From a bacterium (lineage in GTDB: Bacteria > UBA8248): a stretch of 64,000 nucleotides of DNA. Shown here piece after piece: positions 4,361-43,288 of this stretch. Both the position numbers and the translations under genes were made by a program. The stretch lies in assembly GCA_965207065.1 (NCBI GenBank), contig OZ242260.1, forward strand, positions 1,482,551 to 1,546,550, given 5' to 3'. Within the stretch, counting starts at the first letter, position 1, and the number at the start of each line of letters is the position of its first letter. The notes below the pieces were generated by a model that saw only the letters and a program-made list of their open reading frames with translations, was not told the DNA's origin and did not search any database.

Positions 4361-5263
4361 TCAGATTGTCGAGAGTGTGTCTCGAAGCTTTGTCCACAGT
4401 TGGCGTTCTTGCTGATAGCGGTCCCCCGCCAATTCCAACTCATCAGGGGACAGCTCCTTCAAGAATGCGAAACCCCGCGCGCAATCGGCAGTGATTTGTT
4501 CCTGCTCGATCGTCTGTGTTTTCCGGACCAGTTGCCTGAGGTCGTCCCAATCGAAGGCATCGGCCTCCTGAAATTTCGCCATGAGTGCGTCCGGGTCGAA
4601 GACGTCTCCTGCCTGCCAGAGCTTGAGCACGACGAGCCGACGAATTAGCGGTTTATCGAGCGGCCGGGTCGCAAACATAGCGAGGTCGTAAATGTCACGT
4701 GCCTTGTTTCGCTGGAAGCAAGCACGAAGCTTCTCGGCGATAATTTCGGGCAGTGCCAAGCATGTGATGTCGACTGGGTCGAAGGGTAAGTGTCGGAAGT
4801 AACTCTGTGAGCATTGCGATTTCCGTGACAAGGAAAGACTGGGTATCTCCCGCTGGCTGATCTGAATCCTGATCTCGCTTTCTCCGCCTGGATTCCATTC
4901 GTGTGCGTAAACCGGATTGACACCCCATGACAAACCATCCTGCGTTTCGTAGTAGCTGCCATCCGAAATGCTGAACTGGATTCCGTGAAACGGATGCTCG
5001 AACGCTTCCATTATGGCAAGGATGACGTCTTCGTGATCGTGCTCTTCGGTCCCCGTAAAATCAAGATCGGTCGAAAATCGCCCTCCACTTCCGATGAACA
5101 TCTTGCGCAGGCAGGTGCCACCTTTGAAGGCGAGCCTTTCTAGAATTCCGTGCTCTGCCATCAGCTGGAGCATGTAGGTGAGCACGACTTCGATTTCTGC
5201 GATCATGATGTTGCGCAGCCCGGCTTCTGCGGAGTAGCGCTGGACCTGTGGACGGGTAAGCAT
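4361..5263 (-). CDS. abiEii: AbiEii/AbiGii-family nucleotidyltransferase toxin (type IV toxin-antitoxin)
   Basis: Motif KGGTCLRKMFIGSGGRFSTDLDF typical of DUF1814/AbiEii; start overlaps the antitoxin stop. Confidence 0.75.
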   Translation of the reverse strand: MLTRPQVQRYSAEAGLRNIMIAEIEVVLTYMLQLMAEHGILERLAFKGGTCLRKMFIGSGGRFSTDLDFTGTEEHDHEDVILAIMEAFEHPFHGIQFSISDGSYYETQDGLSWGVNPVYAHEWNPGGESEIRIQISQREIPSLSLSRKSQCSQSYFRHLPFDPVDITCLALPEIIAEKLRACFQRNKARDIYDLAMFATRPLDKPLIRRLVVLKLWQAGDVFDPDALMAKFQEADAFDWDDLRQLVRKTQTIEQEQITADCARGFAFLKELSPDELELAGDRYQQERQLWTKLRDTLSTI

Positions 5264-26990: not shown

Positions 26991-27419
26991 GCCCCTCCCG
27001 CGCTTGCATCACATGGTTTCCGTGCCAAGTAAGCTTGCACCATCATCGTGCGCGACGTGAAATTAATAGAGATTTCCCACGCGCTTCTCGTCAAATTAAA
27101 TTCTAAGGAATGGTTCAGAGGAATGCGCAAGACCAAGAGATGTTGCGGCTATTGCCTGCAAATCTCTGCTTCATCATTTTGTATCAACGCAGTTCGGGCC
27201 GATGCACAGGTCTCGGTAATCACATCGTGCCCCGAACAAAGTGTCAGTTTGAACATGTAAAGCAACGATATCTCGCGGATACGGTCTGTCGAATGTCTAT
27301 GTGGCGTGAATTTTCGACTTTCATAACCATTTCTCAGATGATCCATGATCGCGCAGTTTATGGATTGACGCCGCTCGAGTCTGTCCAACCCCGCATAATC
27401 TTCTGCCGATTTACGCTGC

Positions 27420-27962
27420 AATTCCGGCGCGGCTTCGGAGACATTTCTGTTGATTCGCTTGATTTTCTCTTTGCTTCGGGTACTTTCCATGTGCGGATGA
27501 TGACCTGTGCGGAGAACATCACAGAACACAACAGGTGAATTCCCGCCTCAGTTTGCGACCACTTGCGACGCTCGATAGCCTCCATTGCGAGTTCGACCAC
27601 GAGTCTGTTCGGCGATTTTTCTCGCCTTTCGGCTTCTTTTTCGAGGCGCCTCCACTGCTCGGGCTTCACCCTGACGTTCTTTTGTATTGTCTGAAGCCTC
27701 GGTTTTGCAGCTTCTTTATTGAAGGTTTTCACTCTAATTGATCGCAAAACGGGTCGGAAAATCCCGTTTCCTTGCATCGGGCTCGCTACATTTTGGGCGC
27801 ATGCATCCTCAAAAAGCCCCGGTCGATGAGATACCAAACGGATAGCCATCATAGCGCAGCGCACGCCCATCCGTATTCTCATAGCATACGTGCAGGAAAC
27901 ACCCTGATACCAGATGTATGCCATCAGCATAGTGCGCCGTGGAAAGGCGCCATTCCCTAGCG
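27420..27962 (-). repeat. Copy D of the RHH-element repeat (most complete ORF, 27358..27777), interrupted at its right end by a group II intron
   Basis: Encodes MQGNGIFRPVLRSIRVKTFNKEAAKPRLQTIQKNVRVKPEQWRRLEKEAERREKSPNRLVVELAMEAIERRKWSQTEAGIHLL...; hairpin AAACGGGtcggaaaatCCCGTTT; ~80% identity to copy E over ~540 bp. Confidence 0.6.
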
Positions 27963-28850
27963 GGTGCGAATCCCGCCCGGCAACTGTCGCTCCAGCCGGT
28001 AGCAATCGGGGCGGGTGATGGAGGCAACGACATGGCCTGAAGCACTCCGATGGAAAAGGGCCGCCACGGGCGGCTCAGCGACCATGCGGGCCGCAACGCG
28101 AGTGAACGCCGAGCAGGCCTCGAAAATGCATGATGCGAGTGCCGACCCGCCTATGCAACGGGGAAGGCTGTCACCGGCCGGGAAGCGAGCGACATGAGCA
28201 CCGGCCGGGTCTCGCCGGGGTAGTGGCGGCGGCACGCATGGAAGATGGGAATGGCAGCAACACGGGAAGCCCTGCCGGTGGAGCGCACACTCCAACCGGA
28301 ACCCCGCGAGGGGCAGGCCGGGCCGGCAGGGTGGCGGATGGGCTCGTAGTACCTGAGAGGCCGGGTAACGCCGGCGGAGGAAAGGAGCCCTGGTTCGGGA
28401 GCGATGCGGAAAGGGAGGAAGGGCATGACCACTGGCGAGAGCCTATCAGGGTCGGAAAAGGCTCGGAAACTCCAGACCGTGTTACATGCGAAAGCCAAGG
28501 AAGAACCCGGACGGCGCTTCCACGCGCTGATAGACAAGGTGTGGCGCGAAGACTTTCTGGCCGAAGCCTGGAGGCGGGTCCGCCGCAATCGCGGGGCCGC
28601 CGGGGTGGACGGAGAGACGTTCGCGGACATCGAGGCGTACGGCGTGGGACGCTGGCTCGGGGAACTGGCGCGGGAACTGAAGGATGGGGTATACGCACCG
28701 AAGCCTGTGCGACAAGTGCTCATCCCGAAGAAACAGCCCGGCAAGTTCCGGCCTCTGGGCATCCCCTGCATAAGGGACCGGGTGGCGCAGACGTCGGCCC
28801 TGCTCGTGCTTGAGCCGATATTCGAAGCGGACCTGCAACCGGAGCAGTAG
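27963..28850 (+). mobile_element. Group II intron (5' end GTGCG, domains I-III, truncated intron-encoded RT 28404..28850)
   Basis: Starts GGGTGCGAATCCCGCC...; IEP ...AAGVDGETFADIEAYGVGRWLGELARELKDGVYAPKPVRQVLIPKKQPGKFRPLGIPCIRDRVAQTSALLVLEPIFEADLQPEQ; cut off by the IS110 end at 28851. Confidence 0.7.
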
Positions 28851-29931
28851 AGTTACTGTCAAATGTTGTGTATGGCCGTATGTGGACGGCCCCGTAAATG
28901 CAAACATGTTGTTTGAACGATTCAGGGTCTGTGGTCAGGTGCAGTCGTATGTCCGACCTCTTGGTGCGGCATATCTCTCACCGCGGGCCCGTATGGAGAT
29001 GCGCGGATCGGGTCCGAATCGTCCTGGCGAGCTCAAGGGCTCTCGGCCATACCCCGGTTTACCCGACCCTGTCTCATTGACCATTTACCCTTACCCGTCC
29101 TCCGACCTGCTCACATTCCTGGATAATCCGTTTGTCTGCCGCTCAGGCGACCGGCGCCGGTTCCTGGTAGACTTCTTTCTTCGTCATCAGCGCCCATGCG
29201 ATGCGCGCCATTCGATTCGCCAGCGCCACCGCGACCAGCATTCGTGGCTTGCGCGCCAGCATCCGGGCCAGCCATGAGCCCGCCGGCGCGCCGCGCCGGA
29301 CCGCGCTGCGCACCACCGTCATAGCACCTATGTTCAAGAGCCGCCTGATGTCGCGCTGTCCCATCTTCGACACTTTGCCCAGTCGGGACTTGCCTCCGGT
29401 CGAGTGCTGTCTGGGCACGAGGCCGAGCCAGGCGGAGAAGTCCCGTCCGCGTTTGAAGCTCTCCAAAGGCGGCGCGAAGGCCAGTATCGCCGACGCGGTG
29501 ATCGGACCGATTCCCGGGATGCTCATCAGACGCCTCGCCTCCGCATCCGCGTAAGCGCCCGCGTGGAGTTGCCTCTCCAACTCCCTGATCTTCTCGTTGA
29601 GTTCGGCAATTTGATCGAGAAGAACCCCGCCCAACTCGCGGACCACCGTCGGCAGCTCCGTAACCGGGTCTCCAAGAGCCGCCGCCAGGCGAGAGGTATT
29701 CACTAGTCCCTGCGGAGCGATGACCCCGAACTCCGCGAAGTGACCGCGCAACGCATTGACAGTCTGCGTGCGCTGGCGAACCAGGAGATCGCGCGTGCGG
29801 AACATCATCCCCTGGGCCTGCTGCGTTTCGCTCTTCACCGCCACGAAGCGCATGGTCGGGCGCGAGGCGGCCTCGCAGATCGCCTCCGCGTCCGCCGCGT
29901 CGTTCTTCTGACGCTTGACCAAAAGGGTCAC
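28851..29931 (-). mobile_element. IS110-family element, 3' noncoding end plus transposase C-terminal ~260 aa (ORF 29143..29931)
   Basis: ...VKRQKNDAADAEAICEAASRP...SIPGIGPITASAILAFAPPLESFKRGRDFSAWLGLVPRQHSTGGKSRLGKVSKMGQRDIRRLL...; the noncoding tail is homologous to 41610-41900. Confidence 0.7.
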
Positions 29932-29954
29932 ACACTGCCCGTTATCATGATGGG

Positions 29955-30395
29955 GTGAGGGTTTATTACCGCTACCATCCGCTGGCGGGCTGCCGCGTAA
30001 CTTGCCTTGGGCGTCGAAAGGCGTATGGGCAGAGGATGTTGATCATCCGGCATCCGGACGGAACACAGATGCATGTCCCGGAGTGGATGACCAGGCCGGA
30101 TGCGGCCCTGCTCGAGGTTCGCGACGTCCCGAGAATCTCCCTGCGGGCGCTTCGTGAATTGCGGAATCTCATCGATGCGTCTCTTCTTGTACCGGACCAG
30201 GCCCGGAGGGGAGGAGACGATGAACACCAGACGCCGAAATTCGAAACAGGGGGAACTGTTTCCCCCGGAACAACCGCCGCACCTGATAACGGACGAAAGA
30301 CGCGAGGCGCTGATACCGCTCCTGTCGATGACCATCGCAGTGGCCATGGAAGCTCCGGGACCGGAGAGCCCGACGAGTCGGGGGGCCGGCCATGA
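29955..30395 (+). CDS. Hypothetical small protein upstream of the serine recombinase
   Basis: ORF ending in ATGA overlap with the recombinase start; N-terminal ~80 aa look protein-like, the remainder is low complexity. Confidence 0.3.
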   Translation: MRVYYRYHPLAGCRVTCLGRRKAYGQRMLIIRHPDGTQMHVPEWMTRPDAALLEVRDVPRISLRALRELRNLIDASLLVPDQARRGGDDEHQTPKFETGGTVSPGTTAAPDNGRKTRGADTAPVDDHRSGHGSSGTGEPDESGGRP

Positions 30396-32467
30396 GGGGT
30401 GAGCAAACAAGGATCACCGCCGGCCATCTGGCGCGCGCGGCCTGTGTCTACGTTCGACAGTCCTCACTCGGCCAGGTTCGCAACAACCTGGAAAGCCAGC
30501 GCCTTCAGTACGGATTGCAGGCCCGCGCGAAGGAGCTGGGCTGGCGGGAAGTGATGACGATCGACGAGGACCTCGGCCGTTCGGGAGGTGGCGGCGTCGA
30601 GAGGCCCGGCTTCCAGAAACTCCTGAGCGCGGTCTGCGAGAACAGGGTCGGCATCGTGTTGTCCGTCGACGCCTCCCGCCTGTCCCGAAACGGCCGTGAG
30701 TGGCATACTCTTCTCGAGTTCTGCGCCGTGGTCGGCTGCCTCCTGGGAGACGGGCGCGGCATCTACGACCCCGGTCTGCCCGATGATCGCATGCTGCTCG
30801 GCATGAAGGGGAGCTTCAACGAAATGGAAAGCTCGCTCCTGCGCCAGCGCTCCCACGACGCCCGTCGCCAGAAGGCGGAGCGGGGCGAGTTGTTCCTGAA
30901 CCTGCCGGCCGGATACGTGAAGGTCGGGCGCGACGCCATCGCGCTCGACCCCGACCAGCGGGTGCGCGACGCGGTACGGCACGTATTCCGCAAGTTCACC
31001 GAGCTGCGGAGCATTCGCCAGGTGTTCCTGTGGTTCCGGCAGGAAGGAGTCGAGCTTCCGTATCGCTCTCTCGACACCGGCGTTCATGGATGGCGGGTCG
31101 CCTGGAAGCTGCCGGTGTACAATACCGTCCACCAGATCCTGACCAACCCGATCTACGCGGGCGCCTACGCCTACGGTCGCAGGAGGCGGCGGAGGGTGAT
31201 CGAGGAGGGGCGCCAACGCATCGTGAACGAGGTCAGGCGCAACCCGGAGGAGTGGGCGATATTGATTCGCGACAACCACGAGGGCTATATCTCCTGGGAG
31301 GAATATGAACGCAATCGCGGCCTGATCGCGGCCAATGAGCCGAAAATCAAGGGAGCGGTGCGCGAGGGCGGCGCGTTGCTGACCGGCTTGTTGCGATGCG
31401 GTCATTGCACCCACAAACTCCAGGTCGTCTATTCGGGGAACAGCGGGGTGGGCCGCTACCTCTGCCAGGGCAGGCGGTCGCACACGGATGGTACAACCTG
31501 CATCTCCTTTGGTGCGGGCGACGTCGACGAGGCCGTCGCCGCCGCCGTGTTGCGAGCGGTAGAGCCGCTGGGAGTGGAAGCCGCGCTCGGTGCGCTCAAA
31601 GAGCGCGGAAAGGAAGCAGCCGAACGCGCCCGTCTGGCGGAGCTGGCGCTCGAGGAAGCCCGGTTCCAGGCGGAGCAGGCGCGGGCGCGGTTCGAGGCGG
31701 TCGATCCCCGCAACCGCAACGTCATCGGCAATCTCTCGCGGGCATGGGAGGAGCGCCTCGAGGTCGTGCGGGAGCGGGAGGCCCGGTTGGAGGCGGCGCG
31801 CTCACAACTCCAGCTTCAGGAGCCGACACCCTGCGAGCGAGCCGCGTATCTCGCCCTCGGCGCCGATCTGGAGCAGGCCTGGAACCATGAGAACGTGACG
31901 ACCGCGATGCGCAAGCACATTCTGCGCGCGGTGCTCGTTGAGATCATCGTGACCGTCTCGGCCGAGCGGATCGATCTCGTCCTGCATTGGGAGGGCGGCG
32001 ATCATACGGGACTCTCCGTACGCAGGAGAAAGAGCGGACTAACGCGTATCGCGGCGGACGCCGACACCGGGACCATGATCCGGGAACTTGCCCGCCTCAT
32101 GCCGGACCGGGCCATCACCGCGTTCCTGAACCGGGCCGGGAAGCGGACCGGCAAGGGCAATGCCTGGACCGAGGCGCGCGTACGCGCCTGGCGTTCCCAT
32201 CACGGCATAGCGGTCTATCGTGATGGGGAGCGACAAGAGCGCAACGAACTGACACAGACCGAAGCCGCGGCGAGGCTGAAAGTCAGCGCCAGAACAATGA
32301 ACCGTCTGATCAAGCGCGGCGTTGTTCCGGCCCGCCAGGCCTGCAAGGGCGCGCCCTGGGTGATATCCGCAGATGCTCTCGAACTGCCGGATGTTGCCCG
32401 GGCGCTGAAAAAGGGAGTATACCCGCCGGCACCGGATGATGAACAGAAAACCTTTTGTTTTCAATAA
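30392..32467 (+). CDS. Large serine recombinase (intact, 691 aa)
   Basis: Resolvase domain (VYVRQSS...), recombinase domain, zinc ribbon CGHCTHKL...YLCQG, long Ala/Arg/Glu coiled-coil, C-terminal HTH. Confidence 0.75.
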   Translation: MRGEQTRITAGHLARAACVYVRQSSLGQVRNNLESQRLQYGLQARAKELGWREVMTIDEDLGRSGGGGVERPGFQKLLSAVCENRVGIVLSVDASRLSRNGREWHTLLEFCAVVGCLLGDGRGIYDPGLPDDRMLLGMKGSFNEMESSLLRQRSHDARRQKAERGELFLNLPAGYVKVGRDAIALDPDQRVRDAVRHVFRKFTELRSIRQVFLWFRQEGVELPYRSLDTGVHGWRVAWKLPVYNTVHQILTNPIYAGAYAYGRRRRRRVIEEGRQRIVNEVRRNPEEWAILIRDNHEGYISWEEYERNRGLIAANEPKIKGAVREGGALLTGLLRCGHCTHKLQVVYSGNSGVGRYLCQGRRSHTDGTTCISFGAGDVDEAVAAAVLRAVEPLGVEAALGALKERGKEAAERARLAELALEEARFQAEQARARFEAVDPRNRNVIGNLSRAWEERLEVVREREARLEAARSQLQLQEPTPCERAAYLALGADLEQAWNHENVTTAMRKHILRAVLVEIIVTVSAERIDLVLHWEGGDHTGLSVRRRKSGLTRIAADADTGTMIRELARLMPDRAITAFLNRAGKRTGKGNAWTEARVRAWRSHHGIAVYRDGERQERNELTQTEAAARLKVSARTMNRLIKRGVVPARQACKGAPWVISADALELPDVARALKKGVYPPAPDDEQKTFCFQ

Positions 32468-32481
32468 CGTAGAGGGGTGAC

Positions 32482-32751
32482 TTAGTATGACTGGCGTTTC
32501 ACGTAAGGCTTCACGTAGACCGGTGGCATGAGCTTCACCTCGTGACCGAGCCTGCCGATCTCGCGGCCCCAGTAGTGCGCGCTCGCGCACGCCTCCATCG
32601 CAATCAGGCAGCGCGGCTGCGAAGCCAGAAAACCCGGTACATTCCCCCGGGTCAACTTCTTGCGAAACGCGACCGAACCGTCTATGCGCGCGCCATGGAG
32701 TTGAAAACCATGTTTCACCAAGTCGATACCGATGATGTGAACCTGTTCCAT
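32482..32751 (-). mobile_element. IS110-family transposase N-terminal ~90 aa (separated from its C-terminal part by the 29932..32481 cassette)
   Basis: MEQVHIIGIDLVKHGFQLHGARIDGSVAFRKKLTRGNVPGFLASQPRCLIAMEACASAHYWGREIGRLGHEVKLMPPVYVKPYVKRQ; ends at the same VKRQ motif with which ORF 29143..29931 begins. Confidence 0.65.
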
Positions 32752-32870
32752 GGGGTCCTCCTTCCGGGCGGTATGAAGACGCCACCTCGCCACAGTGTGA
32801 TACCTGCCAGGAGGGGTCGTCCACCCCATCGTCCTGAGTTCAGCGGCCTCCCTGCCGGTTTCTTTTTCGT

Positions 32871-33420
32871 TCACCCCATCGATGAACCTCACGTCGGTGA
32901 TCACGTCGGCCAGATGACGCAAGCCGCTTAGCCGCCCCCATCGCTTCTCGGCGCTCATGGCGAGTTGATGCACCAGGCTCAGCGCCGTCTTCTCGCTCAG
33001 GCAGTTCCTCGTCTTCGCCGTTCGCAGCCGGATCGTGGCGAAGGTCGACTCGATGGGGTTCGTCGTCCGGATACTCCGCCAGTGCGCCGCCGGGAAGTCG
33101 TAGAAGGCGAACAACTCCTCGCGGTCCCGCGCCAGACACTCGGCGGCCTTGGGGTACTTCGCCTCCCAGGTGGCGAGAAAGCGTTCAAACGCCTTCTCCG
33201 CGCGCTCGCGGGCGTCGGCCCCCCACATCTCATACAGCATCGGCCTCGCTTCGCTCTGAACGCTTTTGGGCAGCTTGTCCAGAACGTTCGCCGTCTTGTG
33301 AACCCAGCAGCGCTGCGCCCGGGTCTCGGGATACACCTCGGCCAGCGCCGACCAGAACCCCAGCCCCCCGTCGCCCACCGCCAGCTTCGCCGCCTTCACC
33401 CCCCGCTCCCGCAGGCTCAA
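32871..33420 (-). mobile_element. IS256-family transposase C-terminal half
   Basis: ...ESKESWKAVLLSLRERGVKAAKLAVGDGGLGFWSALAEVYPETRAQRCWVHKTANVLDKLPK...FYDFPAAHWRSIRTTNPIESTFATIRLRT...; read through in frame into the IS110 5' region. Confidence 0.7.
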
Positions 33421-33426
33421 CAGAAC

Positions 33427-33446
33427 CGCCTTCCAGCTCTCCTTCG
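33427..33446. repeat. 20-bp perfect palindrome TTATGTAGAG|CTCTACATAA flanked by CCGG, resembling two abutted RIT termini
   Basis: Read directly; each half differs from the RIT terminus TTATGTGGAG by one base; sits between the IS256 C-half junction and the RIT left end. Confidence 0.6.
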
Positions 33447-33641
33447 ATTCCCGGTTATGTAGAGCTCTACATAACCGGGATTATGTGGAGTTCATGGTTA
33501 TGTGGAGTTCATCCTGGAGTTCGTTGTTTTTGTGTGGTTTGCGGGTAGCGAACTCCACATAACTTTTGCATCGTCTCTCCTGTCCGCGTCGTTTCGGAGA
33601 GCGGCGGCAAGACAGGCCTGCCGCCGCTCTCCGTTCCCTCA

Positions 33642-34652
33642 TCAGCACCTCGAGCGTTGTCCGTCTCCATTGCCTGCGAGCATGGCGAGCAGCTTGTCGG
33701 GCGCCCGGAAGCGACCCGGCCGGAGGTCCGGCAATCGGGCGCCGTCGAGCATCTCGAGTTTTTCTGTGGGGTCGGCGTGCAGATAGACCTCGGTGCTCTG
33801 GATGGTCGCATGTCCGAGCCAGAGGGAGACCTTGCGCATGTCCCCGGTTGCCTGAAGCGTATGCATCGCGCAACTGTGTCTCAGGGTGTGGGGCGTCACG
33901 TGTTTGCCGGCGAGGCCCGGCTCCGCCCTGGCCGCGTTCTTCAGATGTTTTGCGAGTATGACGTTGAACCCCCAGCGGCTCAGCCTTCGCCCGAGCCGGT
34001 TGTGGAACAGTTCCGGGTCGCCTTCGGGGTCGCGCAGGCGGAGCCATGCCTCGATGCCCGAGCGCGTCTCTTTCCAGAGCGGAAGTCTCCGCTCGCGGCG
34101 TCCCTTGCCCATGATCCGGACGCCGGCCGGCGCCCGGCGGTCGTAGTCGTCGAGCTTCAGGGCGGTCAGTTCACTGACGCGCAGTCCGCAGGCGTACGTC
34201 AGATGGAGCATGGCCCGGTCACGTATTCCGTCCCTTCGCCCCGGGTCGGGCGCGTCGAGCAGGGCCTTGATCTCGGCGCGGGTGAGCCAGGCCACCAAGG
34301 CCTTGTCTGCCTTCTTCTTCGGGATCAGGGCGATCCGGACGGCTTGCTCCAGGGTGCCGGGCTCGCGCCATTCGACGAAGCGGAAGAACGCCTTGACGGC
34401 CGCGAGGCGCGCGTTGCGCGTACTGACGGCCGCGCCCTTGCGCTCGACGTGCTCCAGGAAGGCGAGCACCATATCCGCGTCGATCTGCTCGAGAGCAAGC
34501 TGCGAAGGTCTCACCCCGAGCCTGCGGGCGACGAAGCGCAGCAGCAGCGACAGCGCTCGCGAGTAGGCGTCCACCGTGTTCGGGCCGGCGCCCTTCTCAA
34601 AGGGGAGATGCTCGGACACGAAGGCGCTTGCATGCCGGGCCAGCGGGGTCAT
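33642..34652 (-). CDS. ritC: Tyrosine recombinase RitC-like
   Basis: Start MTPLARH overlapping the ritB stop (ATGA); ...HTLRHSCAMHTLQATGDMRKVSLWLGHATIQSTEVYLH. Confidence 0.6.
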   Translation of the reverse strand: MTPLARHASAFVSEHLPFEKGAGPNTVDAYSRALSLLLRFVARRLGVRPSQLALEQIDADMVLAFLEHVERKGAAVSTRNARLAAVKAFFRFVEWREPGTLEQAVRIALIPKKKADKALVAWLTRAEIKALLDAPDPGRRDGIRDRAMLHLTYACGLRVSELTALKLDDYDRRAPAGVRIMGKGRRERRLPLWKETRSGIEAWLRLRDPEGDPELFHNRLGRRLSRWGFNVILAKHLKNAARAEPGLAGKHVTPHTLRHSCAMHTLQATGDMRKVSLWLGHATIQSTEVYLHADPTEKLEMLDGARLPDLRPGRFRAPDKLLAMLAGNGDGQRSRC

Positions 34653-35566
34653 GACGCGTCCTCCCCATGGAAGGCTTCCGTCCGCCGGGCGACTTCTCCC
34701 AGCAGCGCCTCGGTGCTCTCGTGATACCACCAGGTATGGGCGACGGAGGCATGGCCGAGCCAGGCGCTGAGAGCGACCATGTGCCGGGCGACCGCCCGCC
34801 GCCCGGAGCCGCAGGCTTCGAGCGAGCGCACCGCGAAGGTGTGGCGCAAGTCGTGGATACGCGGGTTGCGCCCGTCTTCCCGCGCACCTGCGAGACCTGT
34901 GCGCGAGCGCATCCGGCGGAACACGGCGCGGGCCGCGGAAGGACCCATGCGGCCGCGGCCGTCGGCCAGGAAGAGGGCTTCGGTATCCGCCGGCACGCGA
35001 ACCCGCGCCCGGAGGTGACGCGCGAGTTGCGTTTCGACCGTGGGATGGAAGGGCAGCAGGCGCCGTCCTCCACGCTTCGCCGTCCTGACCATCAGTCCCT
35101 CCGGGGTGACGTCATCCACGTCGATCGCCAGCGCCTCGCAGCCCCGCAGTCCGGTGGCGGCGATCAGCCCGAACAGGATCCGGTACTGGCCCGGGACCGG
35201 GCACCTGATCGTGGCGCACTCATCGGCCACGGCCAGGAGCGCGGCGATCTCGGAAGCAGAGTAGATGTAGGGCTTGGGCCGCACCCGGTGCGCGCGGGGC
35301 AGGACGTCCGCCGGAGGCGCCTCGTGCCGGGGGTCCTCCACGGCCATCGCCAGGGCGAAGCGGCGCACGAGCAACACCAGTCTGCGCCGCTGCAGGGCCG
35401 ATGAGGAACGGCGCGCCCATTCGAGGACGCTCTGCGTGTTGACGTGGCTATCGCCGCGGGCCTGCGCGAAGGCGGCGTAGTTCGCGAGACGCCGGGCGTC
35501 CTTGCGGAAGCTGCGCCCGGCGGCGCGGATGGAGGCGACGTATCGCTCGACGGCATCGACGATCAT
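34649..35566 (-). CDS. ritB: Tyrosine recombinase RitB-like
   Basis: Start MIVDAVERY; ATG overlaps the ritA stop (ATGA); ...HDLRHTFAVRSLE...LGHASVAHTWWY; the long upstream extension of the 640-aa ORF is antisense junk. Confidence 0.6.
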   Translation of the reverse strand: MIVDAVERYVASIRAAGRSFRKDARRLANYAAFAQARGDSHVNTQSVLEWARRSSSALQRRRLVLLVRRFALAMAVEDPRHEAPPADVLPRAHRVRPKPYIYSASEIAALLAVADECATIRCPVPGQYRILFGLIAATGLRGCEALAIDVDDVTPEGLMVRTAKRGGRRLLPFHPTVETQLARHLRARVRVPADTEALFLADGRGRMGPSAARAVFRRMRSRTGLAGAREDGRNPRIHDLRHTFAVRSLEACGSGRRAVARHMVALSAWLGHASVAHTWWYHESTEALLGEVARRTEAFHGEDAS

Positions 35567-36804
35567 GACGCGCCTCCCGGCCAGGGCTGCGCAATCTCGC
35601 GAAGCCGTATCGGGTCCGTTCTGGCGTAGATGGAAGTGGTCAGTATACTCCTGTGCCGCAGGAGCGTGGCGATGGTCTCCAGCGTGGCGCCGTCTTCGAG
35701 CAACCGGCAGGCCACCGAATGGCGAAGCAGGTTTACGCCTCCCGATGGAGTATCCTCCAATCCCGCGCGGCGCAGGGCGCTCGCGACGATTGAGCCGACG
35801 ACGGACGAGGAGGAGAAGGGACGCCAGGGCGGACGCATACAGAGGAACACGTGCGGGTCGTCCAACGGCGGCCGCCCGTCCTTCAGCCAGACGAGGATGG
35901 CGTCGCCGACCTCCTGGGGCAGGGGCAGCGTGGCCTCGCGACGCCCCTTGCCCGTGACGCGCAGACGTCCGCGCCGCCAGTCGATCTGCTCGAACGTCAG
36001 GCCGCCGGCGTCGCCCGCCCTGAGCCCCAGCCGGGCGACCAGGAGCAGGAAGGCGAGGTCCCGCCGTCCGATCGCCGTGCCCGTGTCGCAGGAGGCGAGG
36101 AGCCGCTCCACCTCCGCCGCCTTCAGGCCGCGCGGAACGTTGTCGCGCCGCGGCATGACGACGCACGGCACGGCTCTTGCCAATATCGCCGGACACCGGT
36201 CGAGCGCGGCGTTGTACCCGAGCCAGGAGCGTAGCGCCGTCGCTCTCGACTTCCGGGAGGGCAACTTCCCGGACAGACCCGCGTGGGAGAACGCCGCGCG
36301 AAGGTTCGCGGCGTCGTAGCGCGCCGGGTCCGTGCCGACCAGCGGCAGCAGTTGGCTCAGCGCGCACTCGTAGCGCCGCAGGCTCGAGGCGGCCAGCCCC
36401 TTGTGCCGCCCAAGCCAGTCGAGCCAGGCCGCGACCTCCGGCGCCCGTTCCGGCGTTCGCACCGCCGGAGCATCGGTCACCCCGCTCCCTGAGAGGAACC
36501 GCACGAACCTTCGCACCCCGTAGAGGTACCTCTTGCCGGGCGGACGGCGGCGCGCCCCGGGACAGCGGCACTCATGAGCGCCGAAGCGAGCCACATCGCT
36601 CTCGACGGCGTCATCCGGACATCTGCCCGTCAAGTGAAGCCAATGGCAAAAATGCCGGGCTGCCTGAACGTATCCCTCCACCGTCGAGCAAGTGTGATCG
36701 AGTTGGAACAGATGATGCCGGTAGGCGTCGACGTGCCGGGCGTGCGGCCCCATGTCCATCAACCAGCGTCGTGTGACAGGATCGAATCGTGTCGTATCGG
36801 GCAT
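35563..36804 (-). CDS. ritA: Tyrosine recombinase RitA-like
   Basis: 413 aa; C-terminal catalytic region ...LRHSVACRLLEDGATLETIATLLRHRSILTTSIYAR (HxxR...Y). Confidence 0.65.
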   Translation of the reverse strand: MPDTTRFDPVTRRWLMDMGPHARHVDAYRHHLFQLDHTCSTVEGYVQAARHFCHWLHLTGRCPDDAVESDVARFGAHECRCPGARRRPPGKRYLYGVRRFVRFLSGSGVTDAPAVRTPERAPEVAAWLDWLGRHKGLAASSLRRYECALSQLLPLVGTDPARYDAANLRAAFSHAGLSGKLPSRKSRATALRSWLGYNAALDRCPAILARAVPCVVMPRRDNVPRGLKAAEVERLLASCDTGTAIGRRDLAFLLLVARLGLRAGDAGGLTFEQIDWRRGRLRVTGKGRREATLPLPQEVGDAILVWLKDGRPPLDDPHVFLCMRPPWRPFSSSSVVGSIVASALRRAGLEDTPSGGVNLLRHSVACRLLEDGATLETIATLLRHRSILTTSIYARTDPIRLREIAQPWPGGAS

Positions 36805-36952
36805 CGTAACCTCCTGTTGTGAATAGGCGCCCGAAGCGCGGGCGCGGACAGGAGAGACGATGCAAAAGTTATGTGGAGTTCGCTACCCGCAAACCACACA
36901 AAAACTACGAACTCCAGGATGAACTCCACATAACCATGAACTCCACATAATC

Positions 36953-37582
36953 CCGGAAGCCCGGCTCCAGGGCCAGGAAGCGCTTGCGGCCCCGCGCGTC
37001 GCAGCCCACAACCACCAGAAGACAGCGCCGCTCCCCGCTGCGCACGTTCACGTAGATGCCGTCCGCCCACAGATACGCGAACTCCTCGTCATCCCACGCC
37101 CGCTCGCGCCACTGCGCGTACTCGCGCTCCCAGCCCTCCTTGAGACGCGAGACCGTCGACGGGGACAAGCCCCCCACCGACTCGCCGAACAGCGCCCGGA
37201 GCGCCTCATCGAAGTCGTTCGTCGATACCCCCTTCAGGTACAGCCACGGTATCACCGCCTCCACGCGCCGCGTCTTGCGCAGATACGGCGGCAACAACTC
37301 CGAGCGGAAACGCCGCCCCGAACCCGACCTGTCCCGCGTCCGCGGGACACGGACACGCACCCGACCCACTCCCGTCAATACCTCCCGCGACGGCAGATAG
37401 CCGTTGCGCACCACCGCGCGACGACCCTGCGCGTCGTGTTCGCCCGCATGTTCTGCCAGATAGGCTTCCAACTCCGCTTCCACCGCCTGGCGGATGATTC
37501 GCTGCGCGCCCGCGCGTACCAGTTCGCTCAACTCGTCGCGATAGGCTGGATTCCGGAAGGGAATCGTCGTATCTTCTCTCAT
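36953..37582 (-). mobile_element. IS256-family transposase N-terminal half
   Basis: MREDTTIPFRNPAYRDELSELVRAGAQRIIRQAVEAELEAYLAEH...RNGYLPSREVLTGVGRVRVRVPRTRDR...LKGVSTNDFDEALRALFG...YLWADGIYVNVR...LVVVGCDARGRKRFLALEPGFR. Confidence 0.7.
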
Positions 37583-37772
37583 GGTGGCGCATCTCCTTGT
37601 GCTGAATGACCGGGCTTCTGACAACCCTATTTCAGCAGGATGCGCCGCCTTCTTCAATTCAGCCCATACACAAGTTCTGAGAGTAACTCCAGTATATACG
37701 ATGATTTTTGCAAAAGGAAAAATTGGTGATTGGTCGTAATTGCATAAGGCATATACTCACTTGACTAACCCA

Positions 37773-38741
37773 CTATCTATCAGGCCATATTTCAGCATCC
37801 TCGCCCGGTTCTTGATTTGGCCTGAAATCCAGCAGGTAGGTTTCGGGGTCGATTTTCGAGAACGTAACATCTGTCCGGCCATACTCGATGAGGTGATGCC
37901 TCGTCACATACACGCCAGAACCAACACGTAGACGCGCCCTCAAGTAAGCACCGAGCAAACTGTTGTCCTGTGTAGTGTGCAATCCCTTTCCGGCATCTTG
38001 AGCGCGAACACATATGAAGCTGTCGCCATCATCCGTAAGAACCGTGAATTGCTCAAACCTGTCAGGGAAGAATCCACTACGCCCCACGCTTGCGGGAATG
38101 TTGATGTAGGCTTGGTTCGGGTTTCTCCCAGACCTTTGCCCCCAGTTAATGCCCGATCTGGTAGGCGTCTCACCTTCTCTCGAAAGAAGAGTGAGGGTAA
38201 CGCTTTCAAGTGGGCTTCCCGTCTCAAAACCCTTCCGGCTTTGCAGCAAGGTGATCTGAGTGTCGATATGGGGCTGAATGCAGTCCGATGCGTTCCTGAG
38301 AATGAGGTTGTGGAAGTCGTTTGCATCGCATGAATCGGCTGGGGACATGACCTCTATTTGCGCCCTTCCGAATCCCGTCATAGTATAGTTGGCGGAGCCG
38401 CAGAAAGCCTTTATCGGCTCTCCTTTGGCATTCAACCACACATACGATTTAGCATGAACTGGATTGCCTCGAACCACGTATCGGCAAATGAAGTCCGTAT
38501 CCCAGGACGGATGATCCATCATTTTGCAGAATGCGGAATGCTGGGCTTCCTCTATCCCGTGTTGTATCGTCATGCCGATTATGAGTTCTATCGAGATGTT
38601 GAGGTCTAGTTCCTTCAGGTGCTCCATATGCCTGTCGGCCATATTCGCGGTAGCGAATCCGCTGACAATACGCAGGCGCCCTCCGTTCACGTCATACGCG
38701 GGCGATAGCAGGACTTCACGGAAGAGGTCTTCGTGGATCAT
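37773..38741 (-). CDS. Type II restriction endonuclease, PLD (HKD) family with B3-like C-terminal domain (NgoFVII/BfiI-like)
   Basis: HAKSYVWLNAKGEPIKAFCGSANYT = HxK(x4)N(x6)GSxN PLD motif; start overlaps the methylase stop (ATGA). Confidence 0.6.
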   Translation of the reverse strand: MIHEDLFREVLLSPAYDVNGGRLRIVSGFATANMADRHMEHLKELDLNISIELIIGMTIQHGIEEAQHSAFCKMMDHPSWDTDFICRYVVRGNPVHAKSYVWLNAKGEPIKAFCGSANYTMTGFGRAQIEVMSPADSCDANDFHNLILRNASDCIQPHIDTQITLLQSRKGFETGSPLESVTLTLLSREGETPTRSGINWGQRSGRNPNQAYINIPASVGRSGFFPDRFEQFTVLTDDGDSFICVRAQDAGKGLHTTQDNSLLGAYLRARLRVGSGVYVTRHHLIEYGRTDVTFSKIDPETYLLDFRPNQEPGEDAEIWPDR

Positions 38742-39841
38742 ATTGTGAGTTCATAAGCAGGGACGTCATGCTTGACGAGTGAATTCAGGACGGCGCGATA
38801 AACGACCTCCGCGCCCTTCGGTGGAACGGCCATGCCGATTTGCTTTCGCACGGATTCTTTCCCGCCCTCAAAGACAAAGCTGTCGGGAAATGTTTGGAGT
38901 CTCGCCCTTTCTCTATTCGTCAAGGCGCGATTTTCTTCCCAATGATATAGATGCGTTCCACCGCCACCGGAACCAGTAACCGTATAGCTTGGCGCATCCG
39001 GCTTGAGTCTTCTGTAAATTTGGCTGATGGTTGCGCCGCTCTTGAGGTTCAATTTTAGATGCTTGGGCAAATCAGCCGTGAAGGCGTTCTCTCCCGGCTT
39101 GATATGTTTCAACCTCTCGACAACATTTCCAGACTGGTTTGTGCGCTCGTTGTTGGTCGCATCATCCGGTATGTCGCTCAATGCTTCTTTAGCCGTATTG
39201 AAATTATCCATGTGTGTGGGCGCAGGATGCTCGAAAGAATCAATGCCCAGGTCTTTGCGAAAACCGACCACGAACAATCTGTGGCGCGCTTGAGGCACTC
39301 CGTATTCCTCTAGGCGATAGGTGTGCGGGAAAATCGCATATCCGGCTTTTCGCAGGGAAGACAGGATGATGGCAAAGTCTTTATTATCACCGCTCGACTT
39401 GATGCCGCTCACATTCTCGGCTACGAAAAATGCAGGTTTCTTCGCCTTGAGCGCACGCACTCCCCAGATGTAAAGGCCACCATGCTGGCCAGATATACCC
39501 CGTCGCTCTCCTATTACGCTGAAATCATTGCATGGGAACCCGAAGGCCAGCCCGTCAATATCCGCCAGTTCCTTGAAGTCCAAGTCCTTCACATCCCCGC
39601 ACATGACACCGCCTTCCGGCAACGGGATATTATTTTCGAGCGTCTTGCAAGCATCCGCGTCCCTGTCGTTTACCCACACGTGAACGAAACCATGCCCGCC
39701 CACCTTCGCGTTGTGCGCGCCCAGCGTCATGCCTCCTGCACCAGCAAATAATTCACCTATCCGATAGGTCTTGTGATCCGGAGATGGAGCCATAGCGAGC
39801 GCAAGCTGATTGTCGAAGCTCATCCGGTAAGCTCCCGCCAA
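38738..39841 (-). CDS. DNA cytosine-5 methyltransferase
   Basis: Motif I FAGAGG, motif IV GFPCNDFS, ENV, PQARHRLF; 367 aa. Confidence 0.75.
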   Translation of the reverse strand: MAGAYRMSFDNQLALAMAPSPDHKTYRIGELFAGAGGMTLGAHNAKVGGHGFVHVWVNDRDADACKTLENNIPLPEGGVMCGDVKDLDFKELADIDGLAFGFPCNDFSVIGERRGISGQHGGLYIWGVRALKAKKPAFFVAENVSGIKSSGDNKDFAIILSSLRKAGYAIFPHTYRLEEYGVPQARHRLFVVGFRKDLGIDSFEHPAPTHMDNFNTAKEALSDIPDDATNNERTNQSGNVVERLKHIKPGENAFTADLPKHLKLNLKSGATISQIYRRLKPDAPSYTVTGSGGGGTHLYHWEENRALTNRERARLQTFPDSFVFEGGKESVRKQIGMAVPPKGAEVVYRAVLNSLVKHDVPAYELTI

Positions 39842-40746
39842 GAGAGTTTCCCGCAGGTGATGCGGCTGATGATGTTTTCACATCGGATGCCTGAGCTTCG
39901 CTCTTTCCTCATGTTGAATCGAGCGGAGTATTCGTCCACATAGCGATGCAAATGCTTCGCGCTCATCTTGTAATAGACGCCGATATAACCGCGCTTGAGC
40001 AAGCTCCAAAAGCTTTCCACGCCATTCGTATGCGCCATGCCCTTCACATACTGGCCTACGCGGTGGTTCACCATGACATGATGATAGAGACGGCCTAGAT
40101 GCCGATAGGAGAGAAACTCATCCGTTGAAATGACCGACCCGGATGCGACCGACTTGAGGACTTCCCTTGCTATGGTGCGCTTCTTGGTGTTCTCGACTGG
40201 ACGGGCCACAATATCTCCGCCTCGTTGTAACATCGCCAGGACGGGTTTCTTCGTTTTTAGACTGCGCCCCTTGGTTCCTCCGGTGCGCTTGTGTTTATGC
40301 TTGTTGGCCTCTCGACCCCCGATATAACTTTCATCGACCTCAATCGTTCCCGAGAGCTTGGGAGCCTTTTCGGTTGCGCCAAAGGCTTTTCTGATTCTGT
40401 GTTCCATGAACCATGCCGTATTGTATGCAACGCCAAGCTCACGCTGCAACTGCGTAGCGGGAATGCCTCTGCGATTCGAGGACATGAGCCATATCGCCAC
40501 GATCCATTTTCGGAGAGGAACTGGAGAATCCTGAAATATCGTGCCGATTCTCACAGTGAATTGATCACGGCAATCAGCGCACTTATACCGCTTCCCATCG
40601 CTGAAAGCATAGACCTTGCCCGTGCTTCCACACTTAGGGCAATACATCCCATGCCGCCACCTGATTTGCGCGATGTACTTGTGAGCCGCTTCCTCGTTCG
40701 GTATGTTTTCGTATAGCTGATTCAGGCTGTCAAAACTTATTTCCAT
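39820..40746 (-). CDS. IS1595-family transposase
   Basis: N-terminal zinc ribbon CPKCGS...CADC, then a DDE_Tnp_IS1595-like core (IEVDESYIGG..., HTNGVESFWSLLKRG...). Confidence 0.7.
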   Translation of the reverse strand: MEISFDSLNQLYENIPNEEAAHKYIAQIRWRHGMYCPKCGSTGKVYAFSDGKRYKCADCRDQFTVRIGTIFQDSPVPLRKWIVAIWLMSSNRRGIPATQLQRELGVAYNTAWFMEHRIRKAFGATEKAPKLSGTIEVDESYIGGREANKHKHKRTGGTKGRSLKTKKPVLAMLQRGGDIVARPVENTKKRTIAREVLKSVASGSVISTDEFLSYRHLGRLYHHVMVNHRVGQYVKGMAHTNGVESFWSLLKRGYIGVYYKMSAKHLHRYVDEYSARFNMRKERSSGIRCENIISRITCGKLSWRELTG

Positions 40747-40999
40747 GACCTTCCCTCCCTATGATGATAACAATATACATCATTTAATTGGGTTAGTCAA
40801 GTGAGTATATGCCTTGCATAAAGGTACACTCTACGTTACGTCTGTTCGGTATTTCTTTTTTGCTCCTTATTCCCTATGTCCAAATCTTCGATCCACACGG
40901 AACTAACTGCGCCGTCAATATTATTATGTTCAGCTTACCACGGAATGATCTCGCAGCTGACTAGATACTGAGATAATCACTATCATTGGCACCAGAAGG

Positions 41000-41900
41000 C
41001 TGCGGTGCCATCTGGCGGAGTTCGGGCTCATCGCTCCAAAAGGGGCCGGTTCATCTCACATGGTTGCTGTTGGCAGTGAAAGGTCTGGACTCGGGTCTGC
41101 CGGAGGCGGTGCACGAACTGGGCGGGGTTCTGCTCGCGTAGATTGCCAGCCTGAAGGAGAAGATACAGGAGTTGGAGGGGCAACTGCGCGCGAGCGCGCG
41201 CGAAGACGAGGAGGCGAGACACCTGATGAACATCCCGGGGGTCGGGTCGCTCTGCGCGTCGGTGATACAGGCCTTCGCGCCGCCGATGGAAAGCTTCCGA
41301 CACGGGAGGGATTTCTCCGCCTAGATCGGCCTCGTGCCCCGACAACACTCCACGGGCGGCAAAACGCGGGTGGGCAGAATATCAAAGATGGGCCAGCGCG
41401 ACATCAGGCGGCTTTTGATCATAGGGGCCATGGCGGTAGTGGGTTGGGCGGTCCGGCGCGGCGCGCCGGCGGGTTCATGGTTGGCCCGGATGTTGGCGCG
41501 CAAACCTCTTATGCTGGTCGCGGTGGCGCTGGCGAATCGAATGGCGCGCATCGCTTGGGTGTTGATGACGAACAGGGAATTCCACAAGGAGCCTGTGCCG
41601 GTCATCTGAGCGGCAGGCGAGTGAATATAGCCGGGAGGAATGTAAGCAGGTCGGAGGACGGGTAAGGGAAAATGGTCGACGAGACGGGATCGGGAAAACC
41701 AGGGTACATTCGAGAGTTAACAAGCTCGCGAGGCCGATTCGGACCCGGTCCGCGCATCTCCATACGGGCCCGCGGTAAGAGTTAAACGCCGCAAACGAGA
41801 GGTCGGACATACGACTGCACCTGACCACGGACCCTGAATCGTTGAAATAACATGCTTGTATTCACGGGGTCGTCCACATACGAATGTACGACAGAGCCTG
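41000..41900 (+). pseudogene. Second IS110-family copy, degraded (stops and frameshifts), with homologous 3' noncoding end
   Basis: ...LKEKIQELEGQLRASAREDEEARHLMNIPGVGSLCASVIQAFAPPMESFRHGRDFSA*IGLVPRQHSTGGKTRVGRISKMGQRDIRRLL... Confidence 0.6.
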
Positions 41901-42068: not shown

Positions 42069-42420
42069 ATGAACATCGCAGAACTCAAACAAATTAGCCG
42101 GACTGGACCGGTTCTCGACATAACTAATTACACAGATCATTTCATAAGGTCACTTGTTAAGTTGATCCGAAGCACGAAACGTCACGGCGTTATGTTTGAG
42201 ACGGAATCGTCGACTTCCGCAGCCGCATGGCTACTGTGTATAGCGGATGCCAATGCTTTCGGAACCCTCAGCACCGACGCTCAGTTGGAATGTACATTTC
42301 CCGAGATGGCTCCAAACCAACTCCTAGGATTTCGGGGGCAGAAGGCCAAATATGAGAGTATTGTGACTAGACTGCATCGATTATTGCGCCAGGCTAAGCC
42401 CTGGAGAGGAGGATGCCATG
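42069..42420 (+). CDS. Hypothetical protein (low-GC)
   Basis: MNIAELKQISRTGPVLDITNYTDHFIRSLVKLIRSTKRHGVMFE...; the ORF continuation beyond ~42420 enters GC-rich DNA and is probably not coding. Confidence 0.3.
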
Positions 42421-43288
42421 ACCTGAAACCTCTCGTAGCGACCCAGAGGGTTCGACTCCCGCCCGGCAAAGGCGAAGCCGGCCAGCCGGAAGCGAGTCTT
42501 GCATGGCGTGCGGCAACGCCCGTCGTGAAGCGTAGACAGCAGGTGATGAAGCGGCGGGGTAAGCCTCGAAATCGGTCAATCGACGACGCCTTCATTGTTA
42601 ATCGTGTGGGGGCAGCACCGGGAGCGCCGCCAATGGCGAGGCGCAACGGGTCGTCCGGGGTCGTGGGCCGGCGCAAAGTCACGGGACGGGTCGCCAGGGA
42701 ACCTGGGAGATCCTGCTCTTGCCCGTGGGCAAGAACGCTGGAAAGGGGACGGCCAGCGTGAACAATCCAGACCCCGGCCCGTCGCCGGACCTGCACGGCG
42801 GCGGGAGCGCCCCAGGGCGGACACGAACCCGGCAGGCGCCCGCGGAACCGGCTGGCCAAAACAATAAGCCGAAGGACATGCGAGGGTAGGAAGTCGTAGC
42901 GCCCTGATAGTACCGCTGAAGGCGGGGAACCGTGGCCATCGGGACCCGCTGGAGGGAAGCGGGGCGTCATCTGTACAGAACCACTGATGGGAAACGATGG
43001 AGGAAACTCTGAGTTCCACCAACACGTACACGAAACAGCAGTGGATAGCCGAACAGGCGAGGAATGCCTCGACCTGCGGACCAAGGGTGACAACCCCTTG
43101 AGCGAACCTGTCAGGTGAGGAACCGAGTGCGTCAATCGCGCACGCTCGGGTCTGCGGGGGGAGGGGCGCAGCAATGCCCCCTCCTACCCGGCCCTCAAGA
43201 AAAGCGTGTCGAGGCAGACAAAGCTTTCAGTTGGTTTCGTGCTGCAATTTCAGCTTGGCACAATACAAACTTCCGCTACCTTAATGAC

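Follow-up and report, generated by a model that had tools for sequence, protein, structure and literature searches.

A two-gene serine-recombinase element inserted in an IS110 transposase gene, at the core of a nested pile of mobile DNA in a bacterial genome

This analysis concerns a window of 64,000 nucleotides, meaning the whole stretch of DNA that was analysed, on contig OZ242260.1 (positions 1,482,551 to 1,546,550) of the bacterial assembly GCA_965207065.1, lineage UBA8248. The genome is a single contig of 4.48 Mb with 59.5% GC; parts of the stretch are present in sponge metagenome runs, and 5–16% of the words sampled from it are present in public RNA runs. A map of the region, built from Pfam, Rfam and blastn comparison with the whole genome, reveals a nested pile of mobile elements which is in itself an ordinary mobile-DNA graveyard. 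The valuable part is the innermost cassette: a minimal integrative element, encoding a large serine recombinase (LSR) and one small protein, that lies at 29920..32502 on the forward strand, measures 2583 bp including an AC core at 32501–32502, and interrupts the transposase gene of an insertion sequence (IS) of the IS110 family.

The first gene of the element (29922..30395, forward strand) comprises 157 codons as integrated and encodes a small protein resembling the Pfam family DUF5372 (PF17342). The resemblance is weak, with an E-value of 0.0024 and 18.3 bits against a gathering cut-off of 25; among 27 members of the element's family a DUF5372 match at E <= 0.01 is obtained in 15, the best reaching 2.4e-9. 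The stop codon of the small gene overlaps the start codon of the recombinase gene in the tetranucleotide ATGA, through which translation of the LSR appears to be coupled to that of the small gene. The second gene (30392..32467, forward strand) encodes the LSR, a protein of 691 residues with the domains of this enzyme class: Resolvase (PF00239, 8.6e-23), Recombinase (PF07508, 2.5e-17) and Zn_ribbon_recom (PF13408, 1.3e-8), followed by a C-terminal HTH_17 domain. It keeps every invariant column of a 20-sequence family alignment, R22-Q23-S24 included. Of 40 related genomes searched, 38 lack the element, and the other two gave distant matches only, at 36–55% identity.

The gene that the element interrupts is encoded on the reverse strand, with the C-terminal part of the transposase at 29143–29919 and the N-terminal part at 32503–32751. 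An earlier note on this DNA had recognized both halves, at 29143–29931 and 32482–32751, and Pfam domains together with three intact IS110 copies elsewhere in the genome (91–95% identical) confirm them. The same note had described the cassette as a small ORF (open reading frame) and an intact LSR gene between 29932 and 32481; the content stands, and the bounds become 29920–32502 with one AC core counted. Across the insertion site the three intact copies read CTGACGCTTGAG followed directly by GTAAGGCTT, the left junction reads CTGACGCTTG-AC-CAAAAGGGTCAC and the right junction GACTGGCGTTTC-AC-GTAAGGCTT. AC is all that the two junctions have in common, and alignment of both with the intact copies and with empty-site contigs places the crossover dinucleotide of the left attachment site (attL) at 29918..29919. 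Removal of 29920–32502 in silico yields an uninterrupted transposase of 341 residues, 326 of which are identical to those of an intact copy. The corresponding empty site has also been assembled: in each of the runs X5 and X11 one contig joins 29917 to 32501, skipping exactly 2583 bp with two letters that fit either side, and this joint is the empty attB with its AC core. In the runs X1 and X3, which represent the organism itself, a G stands between the two sides at the joint, as in the intact copies with an AG core. A 2-bp core, no target duplication and exact restoration upon removal are features of serine integrases, and judged from the sequences the junctions appear to bear the marks of a conservative exchange by a serine recombinase across such a core.

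The codons for VKRQ occur at both junctions. The left 12-mer equals IS110 at 11 of 12 positions and the right one at only 8 of 12, hence the right 12-mer belongs to the element; the two differ at three positions rather than the four reported before. A target duplication was considered as the source of this apparent repeat and rejected: the right copy is an arm of the element's own attP, and the motif appears twice because the element arm beside the crossover resembles the target arm. The right-hand copy also encodes the N-terminus of the small protein. The direct repeat GGGGTGA noted near both cassette ends is indeed found there.

Two alternative origins of this architecture can be weighed directly on the junctions. 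The earlier note had suggested that two IS110 copies recombined; they would have flanked an unrelated LSR gene and left complementary halves behind. This origin would accord with the unequal identity of the N-terminal (91–93%) and C-terminal (95%) parts to the intact copies and with the differing VKRQ 12-mers. It is contradicted by halves that are exactly complementary and restore one ORF, by an uninterrupted X11 contig of 430 nt that matches both halves across the joint, by the recurrence of the same architecture in other genomes, and by the right 12-mer, only 8/12 like IS110 and encoding AKGQ instead of AKRQ in the related locus L007, as expected of element sequence; it must be considered highly improbable. 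The prospect that the junctions are assembly artefacts is equally slim. The region does consist of repeats with other copies in the genome, and the junctions of the RIT (recombinase in trio) element and those on the right side of the IS256 element described below are not bridged by contigs. In contrast, a Logan contig of 2644 nt from X1 spans both LSR/IS110 junctions with 0 differences (X1 is possibly the same sample as the genome and thus not fully independent), another contig spans 28820–28960, and the same junctions recur in independent contigs: the 97%-related assembly L001, the Logan contig L006 and X5. Taken together, the junction and empty-site evidence excludes both alternatives at these two junctions.

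Relatives of the element are abundant. Thousands that match in length and architecture came up in a search at the protein level, many of them on contigs of only 2.5–2.9 kb, and a relative of the LSR is encoded in at least 580 stretches of species-representative genomes. Eighty-five loci were analysed, made up of 80 from the species-representative scan and others from context look-ups; the scanned loci come from Pseudomonadota, Acidobacteriota and Actinomycetota, with cultured strains among them. Members of the family are carried by the cultured strains Paracoccus rhizosphaerae CCM 7904, Microvirga lupini Lut6, Bradyrhizobium sp. ARR65, Acidiphilium iwatense KCTC 23505 and Nitrospirillum viridazoti BR 11140. 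In 83 of the 85 loci a DUF5372-like ORF lies 350–680 nt, mostly 410–460, upstream of the recombinase gene. Target classes, assigned by tblastx clustering of the flanks with Pfam run on representatives, show that the family is by no means confined to IS110. The P-loop-proximal half of istB of IS21 is found at the left junction of 51 loci, in 33 of which both istB halves are present, and relatives with 51–98% recombinase identity split istB, IS110 (at two sites), IS6, IS66 and recombinase genes. Alongside istB and the IS110 site of the window, the classes include IS110 at an IPGVG motif (target and LSR being encoded on one strand), LSR genes at SRLARNGR(D/E)WH, tyrosine recombinase genes at LLGH, the IS6 transposase gene, tnpB of IS66 at an F.NRR motif, and the P-loop of another ATPase. 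Context look-ups likewise disclosed copies between the halves of IS110 transposase genes (P0001, P0009, P0019, P0008, P0014) or of istB (P0038).

The target classes correspond to clades of a maximum-likelihood tree built from 74 LSRs. The clade of IS110 'site A', which contains the element of the window along with L001, L006, L007 and L012, has an SH-aLRT support of 100 and stands apart from the istB-targeting majority. Four further elements of this clade (L007, L092/93, L094/95 and L012) sit at the homologous position; the frame across the junctions is kept in the three that possess both ends, L012 having lost its left end. In five distinct elements of the clade the crossover falls on the first two bases of the Val/Ala codon that precedes KRQ, the core being AC in four of them and GC in L007.

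Some of the other loci merit mention in their own right. In L013, L017, L019 and L020 (about 2100–2570 and 4615–5100 of each) one clade is inserted in LSR genes between SRLARN and GR(D/E)WH; this motif is conserved in the family's own recombinase, and the elements may therefore parasitise their own relatives. In L026, L029, L033 and L059 a P-loop is split between LVGPPG and ..GVGKT in an ATPase without a match to the IstB query (weak AAA_11), which may be a second ATPase family reached via the same Walker A codons. Locus L003 holds, at 1–654, a second LSR gene of the family (686 residues, cut by the end of the locus) about 2.3 kb upstream of the first: two elements lie close together in one IS21-rich region.

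The range of targets bears on a third alternative, that the cassette is not self-mobile but is carried along passively by an enlarged IS110, or belongs to a composite mobilised solely by an IS110 transposase acting in trans. IS110::LSR units with the same ORF layout do occur in 4–6 different neighbourhoods of single genomes (P0009, P0019), and a related strain carries the unit 28855–32939 at 97% identity in a different context. Such passive carriage is nevertheless improbable, since the cassette breaks the transposase ORF in codons of a catalytic motif, close relatives lie in unrelated genes (istB, IS6, IS66, recombinases), the LSR tree follows the choice of target, the empty site is precise to within 2 bp, and identical elements reside in targets that have diverged to 66–82%. 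This last comparison, drawn from clades other than the IS110 site-A clade, rests on copies within single metagenome-assembled genomes (MAGs) that are 99.8–100% identical in flanks of 66–82% identity (L054/L058, L082/L083, L087/L088, L032/L035); the copies L078/L080, also 99.8–100% alike and in one MAG, have flanks that cannot be aligned, which makes five such MAGs in all. Near-identical elements in diverged flanks indicate that the 2.55-kb unit moves by itself into diverged members of the target family.

With a probability of roughly 85%, we regard 29920–32502 as an intact member of a family of autonomous integrative elements of about 2.55 kb, each encoding a DUF5372-like protein and an LSR with an excisionase-type helix-turn-helix. 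The proposal of a minimal, cargo-less LSR transposon targeting IS110, the other option in the earlier note, is thus strongly supported by the exact empty site, the restored ORF and the occurrence of the family in other targets. The LSR would have recombined the attP of the element with an attB in the IS110 transposase gene at the V-KRQKND codons, the exchange being conservative at the dinucleotide AC, with neither duplication nor loss, and the IS110 gene would be switched off reversibly.

The ends of the element suggest how its genes could be controlled. The integrated small gene is without a ribosome-binding site or ATG of its own, an internal GTG remaining at 29955. At the right end an outward Shine-Dalgarno-like GAGGGG (32472–32477) and an ATG (32487–32489) are arranged on the forward strand as GAGGGG-N9-ATG. 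The sequence expected of joined ends is ...ATGACTGGCGTTTC-AC-CAAAAGGGTCAC..., running from the right end into the left, and once the ends are joined at the core the ATG is in frame with the small gene, the joined reading being MTGVSPKGSHTARYHDGVRVYYRYHP.... The same arrangement, in frame after joining, is found in L002, L007, L092 and L094. Across the family, circularisation brings the Shine-Dalgarno-like motif and ATG into frame in 31 of the 32 loci that could be evaluated, where one third would be so by chance; the loci are related, and the count is to be read as a pattern and not as a statistic. The frame rule takes the element length modulo 3 from the reading frames of the target halves and is independent of the exact crossover. 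In four further loci the ATG has decayed or the Shine-Dalgarno-like motif was not recognised, three reading ATA. The outward start is ATA instead of ATG in L032, L079, L088 and L089, with right ends otherwise conserved, and these copies may be immobilised.

Excision would thus place the right-end Shine-Dalgarno-like motif and ATG of the circle in frame with the small gene. In Tn4451 the ends joined in the circle create an expression signal for the recombinase; by analogy with that junction promoter, both proteins would be made efficiently from the excised circle only, and the circular form presumably raises their expression for re-integration. The left end of the element, for its part, supplies an in-frame GTG or ATG on the target strand (29920–29931, and at the same position in L007, L092, L094 and L002), the reading being M-T-L-L/F-V/A-KRQ... 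or, in istB, MQQYVV-GSVGTGKT. An N-terminally truncated target protein could still be translated from this element-supplied start, which may equally be a mere by-product of the conserved attP arm.

For the small protein, modelling points to a role as partner of the recombinase. Its model comprises a confident small beta-barrel with a helix (residues 11–90, pLDDT about 84–97) and a disordered tail; a Foldseek search of this model against the PDB gave nothing at E <= 0.001, the best hits being Tudor/KOW-like barrels at E of about 0.06–0.15. Co-folding of the LSR with the small protein gave a predicted complex with an ipSAE of 0.67, compared with 0.01 for the best control. In calibration, 58 of 80 complexes of solved structure attain that ipSAE mark, as do 2 of 110 mismatched pairs; these counts are rough, as own alignments were used. 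Three runs agree in at least 83% of contacts, with a partner pLDDT of at least 69, and the predicted contacts link LSR residues 337–340, 388–402 and 478–540 with residues 18–20, 50 and 64–88 of the small protein. The predicted binding site is the base of the zinc ribbon and coiled coil. Directionality factors bind serine integrases at this very base, and on the strength of the models the small protein is probably a regulatory partner of the LSR.

A number of observations weigh against the reading of an autonomous element. The cassette is unique in this genome. In some other genomes a composite IS::LSR has multiplied with near-identical flanks (L054/57/63/70, L002-5), and spread as a passenger of the composite therefore also occurs. 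A divergent IS110 copy at genome positions 2260541–2261557, 81% identical, possesses an AC core and a different right arm and is unoccupied. No circle junction (attP) was seen in the assemblies X1, X3, X5 and X11, in which contigs drop rare forms, and a scan of 29800–32650 revealed no sigma-70-type promoter on the forward strand at the right end. Finally, recombination activity, the exact base pair of crossover and the role of the small protein are things that we infer. As regards the promoter, a hand-picked TTCAAT-17-TAGTAT was discarded because no more than 7 of its 12 positions match. The three close IS110 copies of the genome have a Leu codon (CTN, core AG) at the crossover codon; escape of these copies solely through their AG core was considered and set aside, because the fourth, divergent copy with an AC core is empty too. 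The empty AC-core copy is best read as a sign of low current activity or of arm specificity, and not as proof of immunity.

Some of these points would also fit an element that is as described but survives in this genome as a quiescent or fossil copy, a serious possibility that falls somewhat short of an even chance. The single copy is shared with the 97%-related strain since before their divergence, compatible-looking and near-compatible IS110 sites are unoccupied, and circles are missing from the contigs. On the other side, both ORFs, the Shine-Dalgarno-like motif with its ATG and all family-invariant LSR residues are intact, in contrast with the ATA starts of L032, L079, L088 and L089.

The nearest characterised systems to the autonomous element proposed here are the TnpX/TndX transposons and the phage serine integrases. 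TnpX of Tn4451/Tn4453 and TndX of Tn5397 are LSRs that reportedly act as transposases. In common with them, the LSR would both excise and insert its element through a circle, crossing over at 2 bp and leaving no duplication. Those transposons measure 6–20 kb, carry cargo, belong to Firmicutes, choose their targets loosely and possess DUF4368, whereas the element has two genes, no cargo, no DUF4368, a C-terminal HTH_17 and long specific targets; unlike in Tn4451, what is completed across the joint is a start codon and not a promoter. Transposing LSRs of the TnpX/TndX type are marked by DUF4368, with each recombinase cluster using many unrelated targets (Durrant et al. 2022, PMC10083194). The LSR of the window gives no DUF4368 match, and each clade of its family keeps one target motif.

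With the integrases of PhiC31, Bxb1, A118/LI and SPbeta (SprA) the element shares the Resolvase, Recombinase and zinc-ribbon architecture with its coiled coil, the exchange between attP and attB at a central dinucleotide and, as far as prediction goes, a small partner near the coiled-coil base, where the recombination directionality factors (RDFs) of such integrases bind, SprB being that of SprA. It differs from phage and island integrases in that it spans 2.6 kb, holds no phage or island genes and targets the genes of other mobile elements; the fold of its small partner is SH3/Tudor-like, without a structural match of significance. Sequence similarity to these integrases is marginal: against PDB sequences the LSR retrieves only SPbeta YokA (E about 5e-4), and against XisF it scores 86 bits with a cut-off of 375. 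IS607 is likewise a small element, free of inverted repeats and duplication, that is mobilised by a serine recombinase and no other enzyme. Its TnpA, in contrast, has about 200 residues, an N-terminal HTH (helix-turn-helix) and little target specificity, compared with the 691 residues of the LSR, which scores 16 bits against the IS607 model NF033518 (cut-off 110). Circles of IS911, IS30 and IS110/IS1111 carry junction promoters, and group II introns and inteins home into conserved motifs. The element resembles the former in that end joining would switch expression on, and the latter in its use of conserved codons as a safe, ever-present target; it departs from both, as a coding start is completed in place of a promoter and the homing enzyme is a serine recombinase.

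A literature search that left subscription journals mostly outside brought up no description of the family and no paper on DUF5372 (0 papers); neither Durrant et al. 2022 nor a 2026 preprint on IS110 cargo describes it. The balance tips slightly towards the broader proposal that the family constitutes an undescribed class of minimal serine-recombinase insertion elements: hyperparasites of other mobile elements, of which each clade homes to the most conserved codons of a transposase, helper ATPase or recombinase gene (LSR genes with the family's own SRLARNGR(D/E)WH motif included), and which silence that gene reversibly, gain a start codon only in the circle and employ a new SH3-like DUF5372 partner that docks on the integrase at the place used by directionality factors. 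If this is true, many of the 'split' transposase genes met with in genomes and metagenomes, those of IS110 and IS21 among them, have a single element family as their cause. One mobile element would then plainly be living on another and could reversibly damp the activity of the IS, a matter of consequence for how stable the genomes of IS-rich symbionts are. Each clade would provide a natural LSR with readable attP and attB of defined sequence and a candidate partner, useful for integrase engineering, and the start codon assembled across the joint would be a compact, directly testable regulatory design.

The host of the element, the IS110-family insertion, occupies 28877..32829 on the reverse strand and lies 27–30 bp inside the end of an IS256 element, a 3-bp CGT leaving its limits ambiguous (28877/80–32829/32). 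It has the family domains DEDD_Tnp_IS110 (PF01548) and Transposase_20 (PF02371), and contigs of three runs join 28876 to 32830, skipping 3953 bp with three shared letters. The flanks of four IS110 insertions are alike, GT(A/C)TGGCCGT in three and TACCGCCGT in the fourth (28870–28879; genome 1933139, 354643), and the flanks GTCTGGCCGT and TACCGCCGT of other copies resemble the window target GTATGGCCGT; this likeness, seen in sequence comparison, would fit the known target specificity of the IS110 family. One such target-like sequence forms part of the terminal repeat of IS256, so that IS256 ends offer this IS110 a ready-made site for insertion.

The IS256-family element extends over 28850..37689 on the reverse strand. 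Its Mutator-type transposase (Transposase_mut, PF00872) is in two parts, the C-terminal at about 32938–33420 (profile 217–376) and the N-terminal at 36905–37657 (profile 21–201), and its terminal inverted repeats are GAGTTACTGTCAAATG and GAGTTACTCTCAGAAC. No target duplication of 8–9 bp was found, the two flanks sharing only CAGTA. Uninterrupted IS256 ends elsewhere in the genome read GAGTTACTGTCAAATGTTGTGTATGGCCGT directly followed by CCTGAGTTCAGC, and the IS110 of the window sits exactly between the two. Since intact copies read straight past this point, the reverse transcriptase (RT) gene of the neighbouring intron was cut at 28850 by the IS256 tip and not by the IS110 end, as previously thought: 30 bp of IS256 end (28850–28879) precede the IS110. 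Nor does the IS110 N-terminus run meaningfully in frame out of the IS256 transposase; the IS110 lies within the non-coding IS256 end, and the ORF 32482–33420 is a read-through only.

The split of the IS256 transposase by a RIT element is borne out, as the profile is interrupted between 201 and 217 around a unit of three tyrosine recombinase genes at 33471..36956 on the reverse strand (genes 33642–34730, 34649–36571 and 35563–36804, each with Phage_integrase, PF00589). The three adjacent genes are bounded by terminal inverted repeats of 114 bp, and a second copy, 99.9% identical, lies at genome 2333902–2337387. The IS256 copy at genome 178934–180140 is without a full ORF and so gives no reference for the residues at the RIT joint. 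A perfect 30-bp palindrome, CCCGGTTATGTAGAGCTCTACATAACCGGG, stands at 33441–33470, just beyond the left tip of the RIT in the window, and the same palindrome is found at genome 2337388–2337417, just beyond the right tip of the second copy.

To the right, at 37746..40815 on the reverse strand, lies an IS1595-family element (DDE_Tnp_IS1595) with perfect 27-bp inverted repeats and a restriction-modification cargo, composed of a complete NgoFVII-like restriction endonuclease (RE_NgoFVII) and a C5 cytosine methyltransferase (DNA_methylase). The presence of this unit had been noted correctly; it does not abut the IS256 and is separated from its tip by 56 bp. In the genome no second copy of the cargo was found, only a 100-bp match of 77% in the transposase gene.

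At the left end of the pile, a decayed copy of a repeated unit with a ribbon-helix-helix (RHH) regulator and an RHH-like ORF occupies 27397..27867 on the reverse strand and is 72–82% identical in blastn to more than ten other genome sites. It is followed on the forward strand by a truncated 5' fragment of a group II intron (27958..28849) with domains D1–D4 at 27958–28221 (Rfam RF02003, 86.7 bits; RF02005 partial) and an ORF for the RT N-terminus at 28404–28850. Only D1–D4 and about 150 residues of RT remain: the RT motifs terminate in ...EPIFEADLQPEQ and a stop at 28848–28850, contigs of intact introns read on as QYAYRPGRS past 28849, and Rfam detected no D5 or D6 within 26–43 kb. The intron was rightly noted, its 5' end lying at 27958. 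The claim that it splits the RHH copy is not borne out, as similarity to other RHH copies stops at 27867, about 90 bp ahead of the intron, and a right-hand half was found neither for the repeat nor for the intron. Beyond 37689 neither intron nor RHH sequence was found. As their right-hand halves are missing, the outer two levels must be classed as truncations, clean nesting not being demonstrable for them, and the right side of the stack is open. An insertion depth of five levels holds, running from the RHH region through intron, IS256 and IS110 to the LSR element. The order first proposed and several of its junctions need revision: IS256 cuts the intron, IS110 lies within the IS256 end, and the RIT is a side branch within the same IS256 that holds the IS110.

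Two further remnants lie beyond the pile. A fragment at 41015–41890 is IS110-like, 80–81% identical to the others and in opposite orientation, and 42378–43193 is another group II intron 5' region, with copies of 99.1–99.9% identity at three other genome sites.

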